Source of the DNA: an uncultured Candidatus Saccharibacteria bacterium | GTDB taxonomy: Bacteria; Patescibacteriota; Minisyncoccia; Minisyncoccales; JANBVM01 | Reading direction: 5' to 3' | Length of the DNA: 64,000 bases | Assembly: GCA_964493485.1 (NCBI GenBank) | Contig: CAZBMQ010000002.1 | Coordinates: forward strand, 45,335 to 109,334 | Part shown: positions 12,564-62,793 of the stretch, piece by piece | How positions within the stretch are numbered: position 1 is the stretch's first letter | Layout of the letters: each line of letters begins with the position of its first letter | Made by a program: the position numbers and the translations under genes | The notes under the pieces: generated by a model | The model's database searches: none | Told to the model about the DNA's origin: nothing | The model's input: only the letters and a program-made list of their open reading frames with translations

Positions 12564-12794
12564 TTTTGCTATTTCGTTTATTGTTTCTTTCAAGTTTTTA
12601 AAACAAGCAGAGGCACTCTCTGAAACCTCAGAAAGCAAGGTAGTGTTTTTATTTTTCTGTGAAGCTTCAAAAATCTCAGGTGGAAACCCTCCATTTTCAA
12701 CTTTTATTTCTATATTTAAAATAGGAATCTGGAAATGAAAATCAAAAGGCTTTATCTCTTTAGTTGTAAAAAAAACTTCTATTTTCACTCTCAA
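12534..12794 (-). CDS. Hypothetical 86-aa ORF (doubtful)
   Basis: This is the only ORF in the 350-nt gap after mfd. It has a TTG/GTG start, overlaps the mfd 3' end by 30 nt, and has no recognisable motif. Confidence 0.2.
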   Translation of the reverse strand: MRVKIEVFFTTKEIKPFDFHFQIPILNIEIKVENGGFPPEIFEASQKNKNTTLLSEVSESASACFKNLKETINEIAKSVEWLVLLD

Positions 12795-12896
12795 TCCCTT
12801 TATTAAGTTTTTAAAATCTATATTCAGATAATGAAATATTTAAGAAAAAAAATCAAGTGCTTTCGGTCCTTGTAGGTTTTAAAAATTTCATATTAC

Positions 12897-12905
12897 TGGT
12901 ATAGT
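12897..12905 (+). promoter_or_regulatory. Extended -10 promoter for dprA-topA
   Basis: TGgTATAGT, then 10 nt to the ATG at 12916. Confidence 0.45.
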
Positions 12906-12915
12906 TTAATAATTT

Positions 12916-20649: not shown

Positions 20650-20659
20650 ACTCTCAATT

Positions 20660-20668
20660 TTTATATCA
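20660..20668 (-). promoter_or_regulatory. Extended -10 promoter for tsaC
   Basis: Minus strand reads TGaTATAAA, then 10 nt to the ATG at 20649. Confidence 0.45.
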
Positions 20669-20762
20669 TAAAATCAAACTGAATCAAATAAACAACACAA
20701 GAATTTGACTTATAAACGTCCTGGGTATATCTTTATTAAAAAGATATTTCAAAAATAAATAG

Positions 20763-21062
20763 GTGAAGGTTATAAGAAAAAAAGGAAAAATAAATATTCC
20801 TAAAGATATACCAAAATGGCTCCACAATAAGGCTTCGATAGAAGAAATTAAAAAAACTTTTAATGATTCTGATCTCTTTTTATTGATTGGAAAACATATC
20901 GCAGTATGTTCACATCCAAACTGTAAAATGATCAGAGAGATTTTAGATAAAGAAGAATGTCTTCCAGATCATGTGCTTGAAAAAATAATCTCTTCAAAAG
21001 AAAGAAAAGTTTACATAGGGCATCTTTCAATTCTTAAGATAGAGAAGAAATATAATTTTTAA
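20763..21062 (+). CDS. Hypothetical 99-aa protein (GTG start)
   Basis: ORF followed by its own terminator at 21072..21110. It contains C-x2-H-x2-C (CSHPNC) but matches no family I recognise. Confidence 0.55.
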   Translation: MKVIRKKGKINIPKDIPKWLHNKASIEEIKKTFNDSDLFLLIGKHIAVCSHPNCKMIREILDKEECLPDHVLEKIISSKERKVYIGHLSILKIEKKYNF

Positions 21063-21071
21063 AATATATAT

Positions 21072-21110
21072 CCGAGCTACAAAATAATTGTAATTGCTCG
21101 GTGTTTTTTT
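21072..21110 (+). terminator. Rho-independent terminator
   Basis: CCGAGC...GCTCGG hairpin followed by TGTTTTTTT. Confidence 0.6.
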
Positions 21111-21133
21111 GTTCCAACAGTCATTAAAAATTT

Positions 21134-21162
21134 TTGTCAAAATCTAAATTTTAATTTATAAT
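21134..21162 (+). promoter_or_regulatory. Sigma70-type promoter for murA
   Basis: TTGTCA (21134..21139), 17 nt, TATAAT (21157..21162), then 8 nt to the ATG at 21171. Confidence 0.55.
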
Positions 21163-21170
21163 AATTAATC

Positions 21171-29365: not shown

Positions 29366-29371
29366 TAATCA

Positions 29372-31477: not shown

Positions 31478-31500
31478 ATAGTTTTATTTTATATTTTTTA

Positions 31501-31535
31501 AAAAAATAAAAAAACTCCCCAATGAAATAAGGGAG
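31501..31535 (-). terminator. Candidate rho-independent terminator after the 111-aa ORF
   Basis: Minus strand reads CTCCC-11 nt-GGGAG followed by TTTTTTATTTTTTT. Confidence 0.45.
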
Positions 31536-31547
31536 ATTAAGAGATGT

Positions 31548-31883
31548 TTACTTCTTAAACCATCTCTTTTTAGAAGAAACGAATGGTTCTTTTTTCTCAT
31601 CAAATAAAAATGAATCTACTGTATTAATAAACCCTTTTTGCTCCAATGTTCCTTCCTCAAATAGAGAAGTTACAAGAGTATCTAATATCTCCTTTGTAAA
31701 TTTTTCTAAAACCAGAATTAATCTCCGCTGAGTGGATGTTCTCGGATAAAGAATAATTCTTCTGCTTCTTAAAGCTATCCATAATTGATAAGTACCAGGG
31801 TAATCTTGAACAAGCTCTTTTATTTTCTCTAAGAAATCAGTCACCTGTTTTTCTTCTACTCCATTATAAATTACCAAAGGCAC
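31548..31883 (-). CDS. Hypothetical 111-aa protein (GTG/TTG start)
   Basis: ORF with a downstream terminator-like hairpin. There is no internal Met and no recognisable motif. Confidence 0.5.
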   Translation of the reverse strand: MPLVIYNGVEEKQVTDFLEKIKELVQDYPGTYQLWIALRSRRIILYPRTSTQRRLILVLEKFTKEILDTLVTSLFEEGTLEQKGFINTVDSFLFDEKKEPFVSSKKRWFKK

Positions 31884-32030
31884 CTTTATATCACTTTTAA
31901 AATTTTATTTTTTAAATATACTATTTTGGTAATATCACATTATCACATCTTTTCCTAAAGTCAATCCTATACATCTTTCCTATTTATTAAATCTTTTTTA
32001 TCAAATCTTTTTTTATTTCTTATTTTTTTA

Positions 32031-32074
32031 TTCATACGCGTTAATTTCTGATATCCGAAATTAACGCGTATGAA
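32031..32074. repeat. 18-bp-stem inverted repeat with T-rich 5' and A-rich 3' flanks
   Basis: TTCATACGCGTTAATTTC-tgatatcc-GAAATTAACGCGTATGAA. The flanking T- and A-runs could extend the stem. Confidence 0.85.
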
Positions 32075-32118
32075 AAGAAAGCAAAAAATAAAAGAAAAAT
32101 AGAGAAAAAAGAGAAAAA

Positions 32119-40403: not shown

Positions 40404-43400
40404 TTATTTTTTAACCTTTTTAATGTAAAGATATAATTTTTCTCCATCGATTTCTATTTGTTTTTTCACTTTAAATCCAGCTTTGCCTTCTTTTAAATCT
40501 TTGGCTCTTGTTTTATTGACTATCTTTATTTTATTCTTTAACAAGAACTCCTTTATCCTCTCACTTGCCTCAAAATAAATCAATATTGTATCTCTGGGAG
40601 TAAAACCTCCCTCTTTTCTCGTCTGTTGTAAATTTCTAATAATTTCTCTTAGGTTCCCCTCTTCTTTTAAATCAGGACTAATTTTTGTGTCTAATTCTAC
40701 TTTCTCTTTAAGGGAAGAGTCGGAAACTATTTCTTTTATATTCACTTCATCTTTTATCAAACCTAATATTTCTTTATATTCCTTAAATTCTTTATTAATC
40801 TTTAGTGTCTGTAATGGTTGTCTTATTTTAATACCAGCTTTTGCTCTTTCTGACAACGCCAATTTTACTACTTCTCTCGCTTCTTTCATTTTTTCATTTA
40901 ATTTATTATCGATTGCCTTTTTATCAGCCTTAGGCCAATCTTCTAAATGAACTGATTTTGTTTTGTATCCTAAACCTTTCAATCCCTGATAAACAGCCTC
41001 GCTTACAAAAGGAATAAATGGAGCTGTCAATTTAACTAAATTCAAAAGTACAAAACCTAAAGTTTTTGAACCCCACACAAAATCTCTCTTTGTTTTTTTA
41101 TCAAGAATAACGCTCTGTTTGGACAAAGAATGAAATCTGGGTCTAGATCTCCTTATATACCAAAGAGAAAGGTCTTCGATAGTGAAAGCTTCAATCAAAC
41201 GAGCAGCTCCTGTGATATCATATTTTTCTAATAACTCTGTTGCCTCCAAAATCAATTTATTTAGTTTGGAAATAATCCATTTATCTAAAATATTCGGGCT
41301 TTTAGGTGCTTTAGAGGTTACTCTAATATGATTCTTTGGAGTATAGGTAATAAAGAAAGAAAAACAATTCCATAGGGTCATAATAAAACGCTTCAATCTT
41401 TCTTCCACTTCTTTTTCTGAAAACAACTTCGGATCACCAGGCTGACTCATAGTATAAAAACACCATCTTACGGCATCTATCCCATATTTCTCAACCACAT
41501 ACCAAGGGTCTACTATGTTGCCCTTTGATTTAGACATCTTTTCTCCTTTTTCATCTAAAATATGTCCTAAAGAAACAACATTTTTATAAGACGGACCCTT
41601 TCCCAGCAAGGTTGAAATAGCTAAAAGGGTATAAAACCAACCTCTGGTTTGATCAACTGCTTCACAAATAAAGTCAGCTGGGTATTGGATTTTTTTATCA
41701 ATCAATTTCTTATTCTCAAAAGGATAATGATATTGAGCAAAAGGCATTGTTCCTGAATCAAACCAGCAATCAATCACTTCTGGAACCCTTTCCATTATTC
41801 CATTGCAATGCTTGCAATAAAATTTCACTTCATCTATATAGGGACGGTGAAAATCAAGTTCTCCTTTTTCATTAAAAGGCATTAATACAAAATCTATTTC
41901 CTTTAACTGACCTGGTTTTATTGTCTTTCTTTTTAATTTTTGTTTAACAAGTTCTTCTTTTGAAAGCCCCTTTAAAGCCCCTTCCAAAAGCCAAAGGGGA
42001 TCTCCATGGCTAACAATTAATATCTTTTTATTCTTATATTTTTTATCAATCTGCTTCAAAAATTTAAGCATTCTCTTTCTACAACTGAGCCATGTCTCTC
42101 CGCCTTTTGGTTTTTTATAAAACCTATCTTTTATGTCGGGAAAAGCTTTAAAAAGTTCTGTTTTTTTCTTTCCCCGATAAATCCCTAAATTTACATCCCT
42201 CAACTTTTTATCAAACTTTACTTTAATGCCAAGCTCTTTGGCAACAATTTCTGCGGTTTCTTTTGTTCTTTTGTAGTCTGAAGAAAATATTAAATCAATT
42301 TTTAACTTTTTTAACCTTTTAGCAACCTTCTTTATTTCTTCAACTCCCTTTTTGGTCAAGCCTAAGGAAAAATCAGCTGATTTAGGATAGATTATACCCT
42401 TCAATTCATCAATGTATTTTGTGGTGCCGTGACGAAGAACAAAATACCTGTTTGTGGTATATTTCTGCTCCAAAAGATCTTTTCTGCCGCCTATTACTTC
42501 TATATTTGAGCATGACTTACATTGCCATACCGGCAATGGAGTACCCCAGTATCTTTCTCTTGAAAGGGCCCAGTCCTTTACATCCCTCAACCATTCACCA
42601 AACCTTCCTTCTTTTATATATGAGGGCACCCAATTAATCTTTTTATTATTCTCAATCAATTCTTTCTTTATCTTTTTCATTCTTATAAACCAGCTCTTTT
42701 TAGCATAATAAAGCAGAGGTGTCTTGCATCTCCAACAGAAAGGATAATCATGTTCATATAATTCCTCTTTAAATAACAGGTTTCTTTCTTTCAAATCTTC
42801 TATAATTAATGGATCTGCATCTTTGAAAAACATCCCCGCCCATTTTTGAACATCAAGATTAAACCTGCCTTCTTTGTTTACGGTCAACAAAATTGGTATC
42901 TCTGGAATCCCCTTTGCCTTATATTCTTTATTTATGTTCCTCACAGCCTCCATATCCTCTTCTCCAAAAGCAGGAGCTATATGAACCAAGCCTGTCCCCT
43001 CATCTAAGGAAACAAAATCTGCCAAGATGGTCTTGTATGCTTTTTTAGAAGTTTCATAATGCAAAGGGTATAAAGGTTCGTATCTTAAATCAGCTAATTC
43101 TTTACCTTTAAATCTCTCAACAACCTCCCCCTCCACACCGCTTGGAGAAATTCTATCTTCAGCCAATATCAAATACTCATTATTTACCTTCACCTTTGCA
43201 TAAGTAAACTCAGGATTTATAGCAACAGCTACATTCCCTGGCAATGTCCAGGGGGTGGTTGTCCAAATTAACAAATAAGAATCTTTAAATTCTAAATTCT
43301 TTACTCTCAACTTTACATATAGAGAAGGTTCTTTTATTTTTTTATAACCCTGGGCCACCTCATGGGTTGACAAAGATGTACCGCATCTCGGACAATAATG

Positions 43401-47516: not shown

Positions 47517-47859
47517 GGGGATGGAAAGCTTTGACAGAAACCTAACCAAGATATGCAAGCCGAGTATTCTCTAATCTCGTAAAACTTAGAGAAAAAAATA
47601 AGTGCCAACTTATTCAGGCAACCTGCATTAGCATACGCCTAATGCCATCTATTTTGCTGATTCTCGATAGGTAAAATAGGTGTCATACAATCGAGATAGA
47701 TGCTTTATCTTGGTCTAAATAAAGCATTGAAATAACAGACCAAAAATAGAAAGGTTTTTGCCTAATTTTATACTTTCTGTTATCTTCTAAATTAGGATAA
47801 GCTCGTAGAAGTATCTTGGAAAGGATTTCTGGACAAGGGGGCAGAACCCTTCATCTCCA
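47517..47859 (+). ncRNA. ssrA: tmRNA (ssrA), tag ANLFRQPALAYA, no encoded CCA
   Basis: The 5' end GGGGATGGAAAGCTTTGACAG...GCAAGCCGAG parallels E. coli GGGGCUGAUUCUGGAUUCGACGGG...GCAUGCCGAGG. The acceptor GGGGATG/CATCTCC carries the G3:U70 pair. AAAAATAAGT-GCC AAC... is the resume context, and the tag ORF at 47604..47642 ends ...GCA TAC GCC TAA. The 3' end reads GGATTTCTGGAC-AAGGG-GGCAGAA-CCCTT-CATCTCC-A. Confidence 0.9.
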
Positions 47860-47882
47860 CAAATCCTTCGTTAAAATAAACC

Positions 47883-48422: not shown

Positions 48423-48481
48423 AAGAAATTTCTTCATAATCTTTTTATTCTCTGTTCTGTGTTTTTTGTTCTTTTATCTTT

Positions 48482-48670
48482 ATGAAAGTTAGAAAATCAA
48501 TATTAAAAAGATTTAAGATAACAAAAACAGGAAAGGTTCTAAGAAGAAGAACCGGTCTTGATCATTTCTTAGCTAAAAAATCAGCAAAAAGAAAAAGAAA
48601 AAAGAAAAAAATGGTTGAAGTCTCAAAAACAGAGGCAAAAAAAATAAAAAAATTATTAGCTAGACCTTAA
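48482..48670 (+). CDS. rpmI: 50S ribosomal protein L35
   Basis: 62-aa basic protein MKVRKSILKRFKITKTGKVLRRRTG, in the infC-rpmI-rplT order. Confidence 0.9.
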   Translation: MKVRKSILKRFKITKTGKVLRRRTGLDHFLAKKSAKRKRKKKKMVEVSKTEAKKIKKLLARP

Positions 48671-48677
48671 TATTAAT

Positions 48678-59641: not shown

Positions 59642-60946
59642 TTAATAAAACTTTCTTTTTATCTCATCGAAAAACTGAAAACATATCTTATCATCGCATT
59701 TTTCAAAAGCCCATTCCCAAATTGGTGCGGCAAGAAAACTCTTTTTCTCTTCGTAAGAAAGGGCTTGAAGTAAAACTGCCAAAACATTAAGTTGAGATAG
59801 AAAATAACCTTCCGGAGTGCTCCTTGTTCTATATTCATCCCATAGTTGGATTATTTCTTTTTTAAACCCTCTATCTAATTTATTTGTTAGTTTTTCTAAC
59901 GCCTTTTTTTCATTTTGATAATCTTTAATAAATTTTTTTGTCTTTTCTTTTTTAGAAAGCCTTGTCCATCTCTCTAAAAGCTTTCTTCTTTTCTTTTTAT
60001 CTTTGGGTAAAATATCGTCATAAGGTGTAGTGTCCCCGGTATAAACAGCTGAAATTTCATGACACAATGCCATTTTCAAAAGCTTTTCTATATTATACTT
60101 TTTCTCCTTTTCACTTCCAAACACCCAAGCCATTAAAACCAGTGTAAAAATATGACCTGCCACAGTTTCTGGGTTTTTGACTTCTCTAATAACCCAATAC
60201 ATTCTTGGCATTTTTTTAAGTTTTCCTATATCTAAAAGAAATTCTAAAATATTCTCTAAGTCTTGATTCTCTTTTGATATCTTAATTTTTTTTCTATAAA
60301 ATTTCTTTTGAATAATCTTTAAGAAATCTAATAAGAGAGCATCCTCTGTTATCTCTTCTATTTCCTCCCACCAACCAACTACTGGGGTATCTTTACCACT
60401 CCCAAAATATTCAACAGCTTGAATCAAGGTCTCTATTTTATCTACCTGTTTTACAAACTTTCCCTCTTTTGAAACTCCTTTTTCATAATCAAACCAATTA
60501 GAAAAAATATCTCTTCTTAGTTTGGGTTTAAGATTTTTTATCAATCTTAACAATCCTTTCTTTTCTTTTTCAAACTTCTTCTTTCCTCTTTTCTCTTTTT
60601 CTTTTTTTGAAAGACGGACCCATTTTTTTAGTACTTCTTTTCTCTTTTTTTTGTCTTTAGGTAAATTAATATAATAAAAAAATGGAGTTACATCGCCTGC
60701 ATAGACCTCACAAAGGTCATGAGAAAGAGCTACTTTTATCGCTCTTTTTACATTTAAACCCCTTTTTGCGCTTAATATCCAAGAAGCTATTGCAACCCTA
60801 AAAATATGCTCTGCAATAGTTTCTGGGTTTTTTACATTCCTTAAAACCCATCCTGTGCGAGGAGTTTCCTTTAACTTGTTTATTTTAATTAAAAAATTAA
60901 GCTTCTCTTTCATCAAAATAAAATATGTTAGGTTTTTACCTAACAT
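59642..60946 (-). CDS. Tandem HD-domain (YfbR-like) phosphohydrolase
   Basis: Two collinear halves, each with PRTGW/PRMYW, ET(I/V)A(E/G)HIF, AL(S/C)H(D/E)..(E/A)VY(A/T)GD(V/T)TP and a Lys-rich KDKKKR... segment. The likely start is Met12 (60913). Confidence 0.8.
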   Translation of the reverse strand: MLGKNLTYFILMKEKLNFLIKINKLKETPRTGWVLRNVKNPETIAEHIFRVAIASWILSAKRGLNVKRAIKVALSHDLCEVYAGDVTPFFYYINLPKDKKKRKEVLKKWVRLSKKEKEKRGKKKFEKEKKGLLRLIKNLKPKLRRDIFSNWFDYEKGVSKEGKFVKQVDKIETLIQAVEYFGSGKDTPVVGWWEEIEEITEDALLLDFLKIIQKKFYRKKIKISKENQDLENILEFLLDIGKLKKMPRMYWVIREVKNPETVAGHIFTLVLMAWVFGSEKEKKYNIEKLLKMALCHEISAVYTGDTTPYDDILPKDKKKRRKLLERWTRLSKKEKTKKFIKDYQNEKKALEKLTNKLDRGFKKEIIQLWDEYRTRSTPEGYFLSQLNVLAVLLQALSYEEKKSFLAAPIWEWAFEKCDDKICFQFFDEIKRKFY

Positions 60947-60990
60947 ATTATGGCATAACTTCTTTCAATCTTCAATGAGGCACTTAAAAG

Positions 60991-61464
60991 TTAAGACAAA
61001 TCATATTTTATCTTTTTTATCTTATAAACCACTTTTATGGGAGAGGTAATTACCACCTCGTCTCCAATTTTATGTCCTAAAAGAATTCTGCCTACCGGAG
61101 AATCAGAAGAAATTTTCCCCTCGCTAGGATTGGCTTCAAGAGTACCCACAATCATAAATTCGTTGGTCTGTCCATCAGGCTCTTGTAATGTCACCGTAGC
61201 TCCTAAATCTACTACATTTCTTCTGTTTTTCGGTGGAAGCTTAATTAATTCTACATTTTTAAGAATATGCTCTAATTCAGCTATCCTTGTCTCTAAAAAA
61301 CTTAAATCTTCTCTAAAAGAAAGGTATTCTGGATTTAAATCTTCAGAATGTAAAATTCGAGGAGACTCTCCTTTTGTTTTAGCTAACTTAATTCTCTTTA
61401 AATCTTGATATTCCTTTTGAAGTTTTTCTAATCCTTTTTTAGTTAAATAAAATTTCTCTTCCAT
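60991..61464 (-). CDS. greA: Transcription elongation factor GreA
   Basis: N-terminal coiled coil (LTKKGLEKLQKEYQDL) and the C-terminal block ISSDSPVGRILLGHKIGDEV. Confidence 0.95.
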   Translation of the reverse strand: MEEKFYLTKKGLEKLQKEYQDLKRIKLAKTKGESPRILHSEDLNPEYLSFREDLSFLETRIAELEHILKNVELIKLPPKNRRNVVDLGATVTLQEPDGQTNEFMIVGTLEANPSEGKISSDSPVGRILLGHKIGDEVVITSPIKVVYKIKKIKYDLS

Positions 61465-61477
61465 AATTTAAAAATGA

Positions 61478-61505
61478 GACAAAAATAGCCTCTCGGCGAG
61501 AGGTC
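61478..61505 (-). terminator. Intrinsic terminator 14 nt upstream of the greA start codon
   Basis: Minus strand reads CCTCTC-GCC-GAGAGG followed by CTATTTTTGTCTCATTTTT. Confidence 0.5.
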
Positions 61506-61533
61506 TAGTAGCAAGCGGTTTGTTTTTTAAAGG

Positions 61534-61680
61534 TCATCTCTTCCTACTAAACCTCTCTTCTCTTTTTAATGATGTCATTGGAATAGAGATGCAAAAACAA
61601 CAGACTCTTAAAGTCCTGTCTGATATTAAAAGACTATTTTTTCCATCAATTCTTCGGTTCATAATCTCTTCAAAAAGCAT
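61534..61680 (-). CDS. Candidate leaderless 48-codon sORF / leader peptide upstream of greA
   Basis: Hand translation: ATG at 61680, 5 nt after a TATAAT, gives MLFEEIMNRRIDGKNSLLISDRTLRVCCFCISIPMTSLKREERFSRKR, with the TGA stop at 61536..61534. It falls below the ORF-track length cut-off. Confidence 0.3.
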   Translation of the reverse strand: MLFEEIMNRRIDGKNSLLISDRTLRVCCFCISIPMTSLKREERFSRKR

Positions 61681-61685
61681 TATTA

Positions 61686-61715
61686 ATTATAGTCAAAGCC
61701 AAAAAGTATTGTCAA
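61686..61715 (-). promoter_or_regulatory. Near-consensus sigma70 promoter driving the greA leader
   Basis: Minus strand reads TTGACA (61715..61710), 18 nt, TATAAT (61691..61686). Confidence 0.5.
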
Positions 61716-61770
61716 GTGCTTTTTATTTATTAAAAATTTGTTTAGAATTAATCAAGATATAATAAATAAT

Positions 61771-62793
61771 ATGTTAGAGTTCGACGGTTCCACATTGGAG
61801 GGAGGCGGTCAAATATTAAGAACTGCCATTGCTCTTTCTGCAATCCTTAAAAAGCCTTGCAGGGTTTTTAATATTAGAAAAGGAAGAAAAAAACCAGGTT
61901 TAGCTATTCAACATCTTTTGGGCATCCAAAGCCTAGCCCAACTTTGTGGAGGACAAATAGAAGGAGGGTTTTTAGGCTCTACAGAGATAATCTTTTATCC
62001 CGGTTCAGAATATAAAAGGAGTATTTCTATAAATATTCCAACTGCGGGAAGTATCACGCTTATTTTGCAGGTTCTAACCCCCCTTTCTCATTCTCTACCA
62101 TTTCCTATCGAAGTCAGCTTCAAAGGGGGAGCTACAGACACTTTCTTTTCTCCAACAATTGATTATTTCAAATATGTTTTTTCAAGAAATCTTGAAAAAG
62201 TAGGAGGGATGGTAGAAGTAGAAATATCTAAAAGAGGCTATTATCCAGAAGGTGGAGCTAGTGTTAAAGCAAAAATTCATCCAGCAAAATTCAAGCCCAT
62301 TAATTTAACAGAAAGAGAAGATTTTGAACAATTACTTATCTTTTCTGGAGCTTCTGCAACATTAAAAAATAAAAAAGTGGCAGAACGACAGATTATGGGA
62401 GTAAAAGAGGTTATTGGAAAACTAAAACTACCTATTAAAGAAAAAGTAAAATACTATGAAACAGATTGTCCAGGATCTCATATCTGCTTGGTAGCAGAAT
62501 TCAAAAATACAATTATAGGTGTGGATAACTTGGGGAAACTTGGAAAAAGAGCAGAAGATGTAGGAAAAGAGGCAGTCTTAGAATTATTAAAAGAAGAAAA
62601 ATCTAAGGCTTGCTTAGATAAAAATATGGGAGACCAAATTCTGCCATTTTTAGCGCTAATAAAAGAAAAGTCTAAGGTTACAGTCTCTGAAATAACTAAT
62701 CATTGCAAGACTAATATGTGGGTAATAGAAAAGTTTGGAATTGGAAAATTTGAAACAAAAAACAATTTAATCACCTGGCTTCCAACAGTTTAA
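61771..62793 (+). CDS. rtcA: RNA 3'-terminal phosphate cyclase
   Basis: Blocks LEFDGSTLEGGGQILRTAIALS and GDQILPFLAL, with the catalytic His retained in EITNHCKTNMWVIEKF. Start taken at ATG 61771, not the track TTG at 61738. A TATAAT at 61758..61763 lies 7 nt upstream. Confidence 0.9.
   Translation: MLEFDGSTLEGGGQILRTAIALSAILKKPCRVFNIRKGRKKPGLAIQHLLGIQSLAQLCGGQIEGGFLGSTEIIFYPGSEYKRSISINIPTAGSITLILQVLTPLSHSLPFPIEVSFKGGATDTFFSPTIDYFKYVFSRNLEKVGGMVEVEISKRGYYPEGGASVKAKIHPAKFKPINLTEREDFEQLLIFSGASATLKNKKVAERQIMGVKEVIGKLKLPIKEKVKYYETDCPGSHICLVAEFKNTIIGVDNLGKLGKRAEDVGKEAVLELLKEEKSKACLDKNMGDQILPFLALIKEKSKVTVSEITNHCKTNMWVIEKFGIGKFETKNNLITWLPTV

Follow-up and report, generated by a model that had tools for sequence, protein, structure and literature searches.

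Locus organization and features of the leader

The window described here is a stretch of 64,000 nt from an uncultured Candidatus Saccharibacteria bacterium (contig CAZBMQ010000002.1, positions 45,335 to 109,334, assembly GCA_964493485.1), and it carries on its minus strand a greA gene preceded by a long leader. A short open reading frame (sORF), an antiterminator helix (P2) and an intrinsic terminator (T) are located in this leader. P2 and T are conserved 5' of greA in related genomes, as is the sORF, and the whole is probably, though far from certainly, a ribosome-dependent transcription attenuator. The features of the locus, all in window coordinates, are the following.

60991..61464, minus strand: greA, 157 aa, with GreA_GreB_N and GreA_GreB domains; the putatively regulated gene
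61686..61715, minus strand: sigma-70-type promoter; -35 box TTGACA (61715..61710), 18-nt spacer, -10 box TATAAT (61691..61686)
61534..61680, minus strand: leader sORF, 48 codons from the first ATG; UGA stop (61536..61534) in the P2 loop
61592..61622, minus strand: tentative internal hairpin P0, CAGAC-12 nt-GUCUG (61622..61601), followed by the U/G-rich tract UUGUUUUUG (61600..61592)
61535..61591, minus strand: proposed helix P1, 61591..61585 with 61541..61535; unsupported
61544..61557, minus strand: P2 5' arm, GAGAGGUUUAGUAG; antiterminator arm within the sORF, from folding and from covariation with the 3' arm
61498..61511, minus strand: P2 3' arm, CUACUAGACCUCUC; contains the T 5' arm and is the shared switching segment, from folding and partner swapping
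61479..61507, minus strand: terminator T, UAG-A-CCUCUC GCC GAGAGG-CUA (61507..61486), then UUUUUGU (61485..61479); from a terminator scan
61477..61560, minus strand: match of covariance model R1 to the P2 and T module, 41 bits, E = 2.8e-8; the sole strong match in the 64-kb window

The greA start codon is located at 61464 and rtcA starts at approximately 61771 on the plus strand. The gap of 306 nt between the two genes, which a preliminary description of this DNA had called unusually long, is the 5th longest of the 55 gaps counted between open reading frames (ORFs) of at least 70 aa within the window; the median of these gaps is 28 nt. The promoter placed in this gap by the same description was found again at 61715..61686 with the full consensus score (12/12), as the sole perfect match in the 2 kb scanned. 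The sequence CTTGACA...TATAAT is also present in the closest relatives, and is discernible 5' of the sORF in many loci. The leader transcript predicted from this promoter is approximately 215 nt in length. A separate promoter between the terminator and greA had been sought without success; the spacing from T to the greA ATG is 7-25 nt in most loci, which leaves no room for one, so that greA would depend on read-through.

The motifs GGAG and GAGG occur at positions -20 to -4 in none of the 47 window ORFs with a length of 150 aa or more (e.g. those starting at 29371+, 21170+, 39049-, 54161- and 62039-), where the background is 7%, and G-rich arms of the leader were rejected as Shine-Dalgarno sites for the window on this count. 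Many window genes show a TATAAT box 5-13 nt before the ATG. The genome seems to use mRNAs that are devoid of Shine-Dalgarno sequences and are largely leaderless or near-leaderless. The leader of greA is exceptional in this respect, since other genes here have very short leaders or none.

Folding of the leader, a check proposed at the outset, gave a better energy than shuffled sequences (z = -4.0, 0/200 shuffles), with P2 as the dominant helix. P2 consists of 14 contiguous pairs (61557..61544 with 61511..61498) and a 3-bp extension, with -25.6 kcal/mol when folded alone; the helix first paired by hand over 16 positions with one mismatch exists, but is longer than described. The terminator T was found independently by the terminator scan, at -8.0 kcal/mol alone. 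It also extends further than the stem originally given, by the outer elements of UAG-A-CCUCUC/GAGAGG-CUA. Its 5' arm lies wholly within the P2 3' arm, with an overlap of 6-10 nt rather than the 4 nt reported, and its U-tract ends approximately 16 nt, not 14 nt, before the greA ATG. If the window leader is folded as naked RNA, the probability of P2 is ~1 and that of T is 0. T becomes the minimum free energy structure once pairing is forbidden at 61562..61530, the stretch that a ribosome at the sORF end would cover.

The preliminary description listed three mutually exclusive helices. P2 and T do exclude each other, but P1 is not supported as a third. Its complementarity of 7 nt (CAUCUCU/AGAGAUG) exists, with a duplex energy of -7.6 kcal/mol, yet its ensemble probability is 0.000, it is not conserved, and it overlaps only the weak P2 extension and not the 14-bp core. 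Complementarity between the upstream sORF and the P2 5' arm is no better than in shuffles for the window (z = +0.34), and the same holds across the relatives (mean z = -0.23; swap test p ~0.12).

Values of z < -2 were obtained in seven relatives (L016, L067, L037, L005, L033, L009 and L001). In these, a segment located 53-82 nt upstream (sORF codons ~8-14), often AAUCCC (Asn-Pro), is strongly complementary to the P2 5' arm. This segment may act as an anti-antiterminator specific to a lineage, in which case the leaders concerned would be fully trp-like.

Conservation and covariation in relatives

A total of 80 greA loci of Paceibacteria/Nealsonbacteria, one per species and with GreA identities of 55-83%, was fetched; according to the GreA homologues and the fetched loci, the window belongs to Candidatus Nealsonbacteria or neighbouring Paceibacteria (Patescibacteria, the Candidate Phyla Radiation or CPR). 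A common topology is visible by eye just 5' of greA in most of the loci: a G-rich arm is followed by an A-rich loop and a C-rich arm and, past a short loop, by a second G-rich arm and then a U-tract. The arms themselves vary in sequence by lineage (e.g. GAGAGGUUUAG, GGGGGUUCAG, GAGGGGAUUAG, CGGGGACUGA and AAGGGAG).

The covariance model R1 was built with P2 as its structure and searched against 537 kb. Besides the window, it matched 56 loci at E <= 2e-6 and approximately 63 at E < 1e-3 among the 80 related genomes, in every case directly 5' of greA and on the sense strand. Elsewhere in the 537 kb nothing scored better than E ~0.007, except for weaker antisense echoes of the same hairpins. The model and approximately 57 natural sequence variants are available as a resource. 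More distant loci without the P2 and T module have a plain promoter directly before greA.

Conservation and covariation of the helices in relatives, a check set beforehand, were found for both P2 and T. In a sequence-only MAFFT alignment, 85.9% of the P2 cells are paired, and compensatory changes are seen in 11 of the 13 pairs. P2 scores 0.377 for covariation in this alignment, compared with 0.185 in shuffles (0/500) and a maximum of 0.172 in slid controls. On the model alignment 88.2% of the cells are paired and the score is 0.420 versus 0.191. The structure is assigned to the greA-sense strand because of the many G-U pairs in P2.

Covariation was also addressed by an alignment-free partner-swap test, in which the shared middle segment of a genome was joined to its own or to another genome's downstream arm (for T) or upstream arm (for P2). 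For T the energy was -12.41 kcal/mol with the own arm and -8.33 +/- 0.36 kcal/mol with permuted arms; for P2 the values were -16.16 and -10.69 +/- 0.44 kcal/mol, and neither own-arm value was reached in 10,000 permutations (0/10,000 each). T hairpins, with energies from -8 to -18 kcal/mol, are present in 55/55 distinct sequences, and a U-tract follows most of them. RNAalifold returned almost no structure on the MAFFT alignments, because the variable loops shift homologous arms out of register, and it was replaced by explicit structure counts and the partner-swap tests.

In a search of the whole window against Rfam the only match at gathering level was a tmRNA, located elsewhere, and a search of 61300..61900 at a permissive threshold gave nothing above 17 bits or below E = 2.6. 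A second copy of the module in the window, at 42112..42181, was considered and rejected; it is a weak R1 match inside a 1173-aa ORF and is attributed to chance. An antisense ORF (61520..61762, plus strand, 80 codons, TTG start) spans the whole leader. It is probably spurious; the G-U pairs, and a score of the sense-strand model that is 25 bits higher, favour the minus strand.

Some relatives differ from the common layout. In five loci (L014, L026, L027, L039 and L057) a second conserved insert of ~60-85 nt is located between T and greA. It holds a mini-ORF of 12-14 codons (MF(N/D)E...), two hairpins (GATGAAT..ATTCATC and GTAAATAAT..ATTATTTAC), and ends with TTCGATG where greA begins. It may add another level of control, or it may be a small mobile insert. 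Longer spacers between T and greA are also found in L012, L024/L060 and L074. In the last ~40 nt before greA, five other loci (L031, L053, L059, L047 and L033) have a hairpin equivalent to T but without a U-tract, whose 3' arm is GGAGG or GGGGG and lies 10-15 nt before the greA ATG. These may represent a translational form of the switch, in which the ribosome-binding site is sequestered.

The leader open reading frame

The sORF of 48 codons, including its Val-Cys-Cys-Phe-Cys stretch, was confirmed at 61680..61534, and its frame traverses the P2 5' arm. The first ATG is located five bases past the -10 box, and an alternative in-frame start at 61662 would give 42 codons (MNRR...). A leaderless start at 61680, as originally described, is not conserved, though plausible in this genome: the sORF start of close relatives aligns with the ATG at 61662, and 11-39 nt separate the -10 box from the ATG in most relatives.

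The sORF is kept upstream of greA in relatives. When scored as an ORF of at least 27 codons that starts with ATG and ends between -6 and +30 nt relative to the start of the P2 5' arm, a frame of 27-48 codons was found at or near this arm in 52 of the 53 loci first scored, and in 8.4% of dinucleotide shuffles of the upstream 200 nt. Two layouts are observed. In the first, the beginning of the arm overlaps with the stop codon, in most cases UGA (UGAGGGG...). In the second, to which the window belongs, the frame passes through the arm and stops 14-30 nt further on, in the loop. The P2 loop has a median length of 20 nt in the first layout and 39 nt in the second, and stop offset and loop length are correlated (r = 0.87 overall; rho = 0.74 within one group). 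Between the stop and the P2 3' arm there are 18-45 nt, with a median of 27 nt, and never less than 18 nt, about one ribosome half-footprint. Such spacing would be expected if a terminating ribosome covered the 5' arm yet left the 3' arm available for T. Codon-position entropy, calculated without gaps, was uninformative for the sORF frame.

Hairpin P0 and the cysteine run

The sORF of the window contains the internal hairpin P0. A hairpin followed by a U-rich tract is found within the sORF in 22 of 55 loci, compared with 13.9% of shuffles, and elements of this type always end 9-44 nt (median 32 nt) before P2. Close relatives have different stems in the same place, and column-wise covariation of P0 is marginal in the larger group. 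By analogy with classical attenuators, P0 is tentatively regarded as a candidate RNA polymerase pause site that could synchronise ribosome and polymerase.

The tract UUGUUUUUG encodes the Cys-Cys-Phe-Cys run of the window, and the run is therefore taken to be a by-product of an RNA-level feature. The preliminary description had singled out this run as a possible regulatory element. The run is present in the sORF, but a regulatory role is not supported, since it is absent even from the closest relatives and only 9 of 52 sORFs contain at least two cysteines. Cysteine sensing through it was likewise rejected, on the grounds that the run is unconserved and is encoded by the U/G-rich tract of P0.

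Proposed mechanism

The attenuator-type leader put forward at the outset, with promoter, short ORF, antiterminator and terminator, is supported by the conservation and covariation of P2 and T and by the maintenance of the frame. The interpretation favoured here, with moderate confidence, is that a conserved, ribosome-dependent transcription attenuator controls greA. A masking agent is needed because T, which is conserved and covarying, forms only if the P2 5' arm is masked, and the only conserved candidate for this agent is a ribosome on the sORF.

Transcription from 61715..61686 would produce the leader, in which the sORF runs into the P2 5' arm. If this arm is free, P2 would form, as it is much more stable than T and is transcribed earlier; T would then be blocked and the polymerase would continue into greA (the ON state). 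A ribosome that translates the end of the sORF, or that is located at its stop, would mask the arm, the C-rich segment would pair with the downstream G-rich arm, and T would form and presumably end transcription in vivo (the OFF state). Efficient and well-coupled translation of the sORF would keep greA low, and slow, stalled, absent or uncoupled (lagging) translation would raise it; both this signal and its direction are presumptive. Since GreA rescues backtracked RNA polymerase, raising greA when ribosomes lag would be a sensible response. Expression of greA may in this way follow the relative progress of ribosome and RNA polymerase, a variable tied to the function of GreA.

How cells set the level of GreA is unclear even in E. 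coli, where GreA autoregulates through its leader in cis, only in vivo, and with an extra factor that is still unidentified (PMC6829880). Such GreA-dependent control through the leader is known from E. coli alone. A kinetic comparator giving GreA homeostasis is a doubtful extension of the attenuator scheme. The ribosome finishing the sORF would hold the P2 5' arm for a short dwell time, while the polymerase crosses the A-rich P2 loop, which would act as a spacer or timer with a length that follows the position of the stop. If GreA is ample, a fast and backtrack-free polymerase would reach T with the ribosome still in place, and termination would follow. With scarce GreA, the polymerase would be slow or backtracked, the ribosome would leave first, P2 would form and greA would be transcribed. 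If true, this would constitute negative autoregulation, and the ribosome would be the kind of 'in vivo only' accessory factor that is missing from the E. coli GreA/GraL model.

Evidence against the attenuator and alternative explanations

Several results weigh against the ribosome-dependent attenuator. The U-tracts are poor in some relatives, and the sequences share phylogeny, so that significance based on shuffles and permutations is overstated. On a second covariance-model alignment 78.8% of the T cells are paired but 80.6% are paired at slide +1, as two registers are mixed; the covariation of T therefore rests on the energy-based swap test and not on column counts. Neither a conserved anti-antiterminator, equivalent to the 1:2 helix of trp/his-type attenuators, nor a conserved regulatory codon run in the sORFs was found, and the start codon and initiation signals of the sORF are uncertain in a genome without Shine-Dalgarno sequences. 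The frame itself shows little coding constraint. The ratio pN/pS is 0.74 in frame versus 0.71 and 0.62 out of frame, close pairs are only mildly rich in synonymous changes (24 synonymous versus 43 non-synonymous codon changes), and the composition of the sORF is non-coding-like, with C, T and R enriched and D and E depleted.

The lack of frame-specific constraint and the non-coding-like composition would suit an explanation in which the P2/T switch is real but is set by polymerase kinetics or a protein factor (e.g. GreA feedback), the open frame being an untranslated by-product of RNA-level constraints. The hydrophobic or cysteine-rich stretch, whose codons lie in a U-rich tract past a hairpin, points in the same direction, and precedents exist: GreA of E. 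coli represses its own gene in cis via the leader terminator (PMC6829880), and antiterminator/terminator pairs are present in greA leaders of Proteobacteria, bacilli and Clostridia, for which no peptide is reported (PMC2965389). However, without selection for translation it is hard to account for a frame that is maintained so far above the shuffled level in highly diverged, AT-rich leaders, or for a stop position that co-varies with the length of the P2 loop and observes a minimum spacing. No conserved loop or bulge is available for factor binding, the P2 loop being A-rich and variable, and nothing else that is conserved could mask the P2 5' arm. This explanation is considered unlikely. The data fit a leader peptide whose translation, and not its sequence, would matter, and they also keep the untranslated frame alive as a rival.

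That the sORF is a true small-protein gene, with a basic N-terminus and a hydrophobic C-terminus, co-transcribed with greA, is improbable. In this case T would act as a leaky terminator of that gene, P2 would be a hairpin that stabilises, and no conditional switch would exist. Position and length of the frame are conserved, a motif (..KW.YAI.VLTFGK..) recurs weakly, one exact sORF is present in a protein collection, and a gene caller predicted the sORF in one metagenome contig. Apart from these, the sORFs of the relatives are nearly absent from public protein sets, and the conserved small ORFs are almost missing from public annotation. However, conservation of the peptide is very low, synonymous changes are not favoured relative to other frames, and searches of the sORF peptide against Pfam and NCBIfam gave no match, on which ground a known small-protein family was rejected. 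Furthermore, a plain terminator has no need of a competitor that is stronger, covaries, uses the same 5' arm and, in two layouts, begins exactly at the ORF end.

It is very improbable that the main product is the short leader RNA released at T, active in trans, and that control of greA comes second. Such a role is compatible with the attenuator and is known from E. coli GraL, which acts in trans and in cis (PMC2836576, PMC6829880). Against it, only the paired arms are conserved, and these covary, which points to structure rather than a conserved seed, and the window showed neither a second copy nor a target-like match.

Other features of the window

A terminator-like hairpin of 12 bp is located 3' of greA (60949..60922, minus strand) and overlaps the first ATG of the next ORF (59642..60946, minus strand, 434 aa). 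This ORF has tandem YfbR-like/HD_3 domains (x2), as seen on homologues, and its true start is probably a downstream Met (MKEKL...). A TG-extended -10-like site is present between greA and this ORF (60975..60947, minus strand). The tmRNA gene (Rfam RF00023, 115 bits) is located at 47517..47862 on the plus strand, inside the longest intergenic gap of the window. Further long gaps of 255-641 nt are found at 31478..32118, 20650..21170, 12564..12915 and 48423..48677; no Rfam family reached its gathering score in these four gaps in the window scan.

Comparison with known systems

Regulatory evidence is rare for an uncultivated CPR lineage such as this one, in which genomes are tiny, Shine-Dalgarno sequences are lacking and most genes are leaderless. 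The leader described here is compact and supported by covariation, and it ties a terminator/antiterminator switch of greA to a short ORF that is presumably translated.

The closest logic is that of whiB7-type uORF (upstream ORF) attenuators, together with the vmlR, erm and cat-type leaders that sense translation stress. In the whiB7 attenuator, efficient translation of the uORF leads to the terminator and inefficient translation to the antiterminator. The same architecture is found in the window and its relatives, namely a poorly conserved uORF followed by a mutually exclusive antiterminator and Rho-independent terminator, without a cognate codon run, and the corresponding read-through response is predicted from constrained folding. 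Unlike in whiB7-type systems, the product of the regulated gene is a transcription elongation factor rather than a regulator of resistance, the host belongs to the CPR bacteria and lacks Shine-Dalgarno sequences, and the direction of control is presumptive.

The leader also resembles the trp, his, leu, thr, ilv and phe attenuators. It has a leader ORF whose stop is placed such that a terminating ribosome would mask the antiterminator 5' arm ('segment 2') and permit the 3:4 terminator; the 2:3 antiterminator and the 3:4 terminator share a segment, and P0 possibly corresponds to the pause hairpin in the leader ORF. It differs from them by the lack of a regulatory codon run and of a conserved 1:2 helix, and by a downstream gene that is not biosynthetic. 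Since there is no 1:2 anti-antiterminator, an untranslated RNA is predicted to read through and not to super-attenuate.

Attenuation of greA itself has ample precedent. The greA/rnk family is the seventh among gene families prone to 5' attenuators, and terminator/antiterminator leaders of greA are known from Proteobacteria, bacilli and Clostridia (PMC2965389); in E. coli the leader terminator yields GraL (PMC2836576). The E. coli precedent invoked in the preliminary description is thus borne out, as part of a known class that recurs across phyla. The window shares with this class an intrinsic terminator in the 5' leader, on the same strand as greA and near its start codon, an alternative antiterminator that excludes the terminator and covaries, and the predicted dependence on read-through. 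No Rfam relationship is detectable for the window leader. No leader peptide is described for the enterobacterial and Bacillus greA leaders, and GraL has only ~19 nt before the terminator, whereas the leader described here is ~215 nt long and has a conserved ORF of 27-48 codons that ends at the antiterminator arm. Literature searches found no uORF-coupled greA leader and no leader-peptide attenuation in CPR bacteria, in agreement with the earlier suggestion that a peptide-coupled greA leader would be new. The leader of the window is a uORF-coupled variant of the known greA-leader attenuators, and its coupling to a short ORF is what is new.

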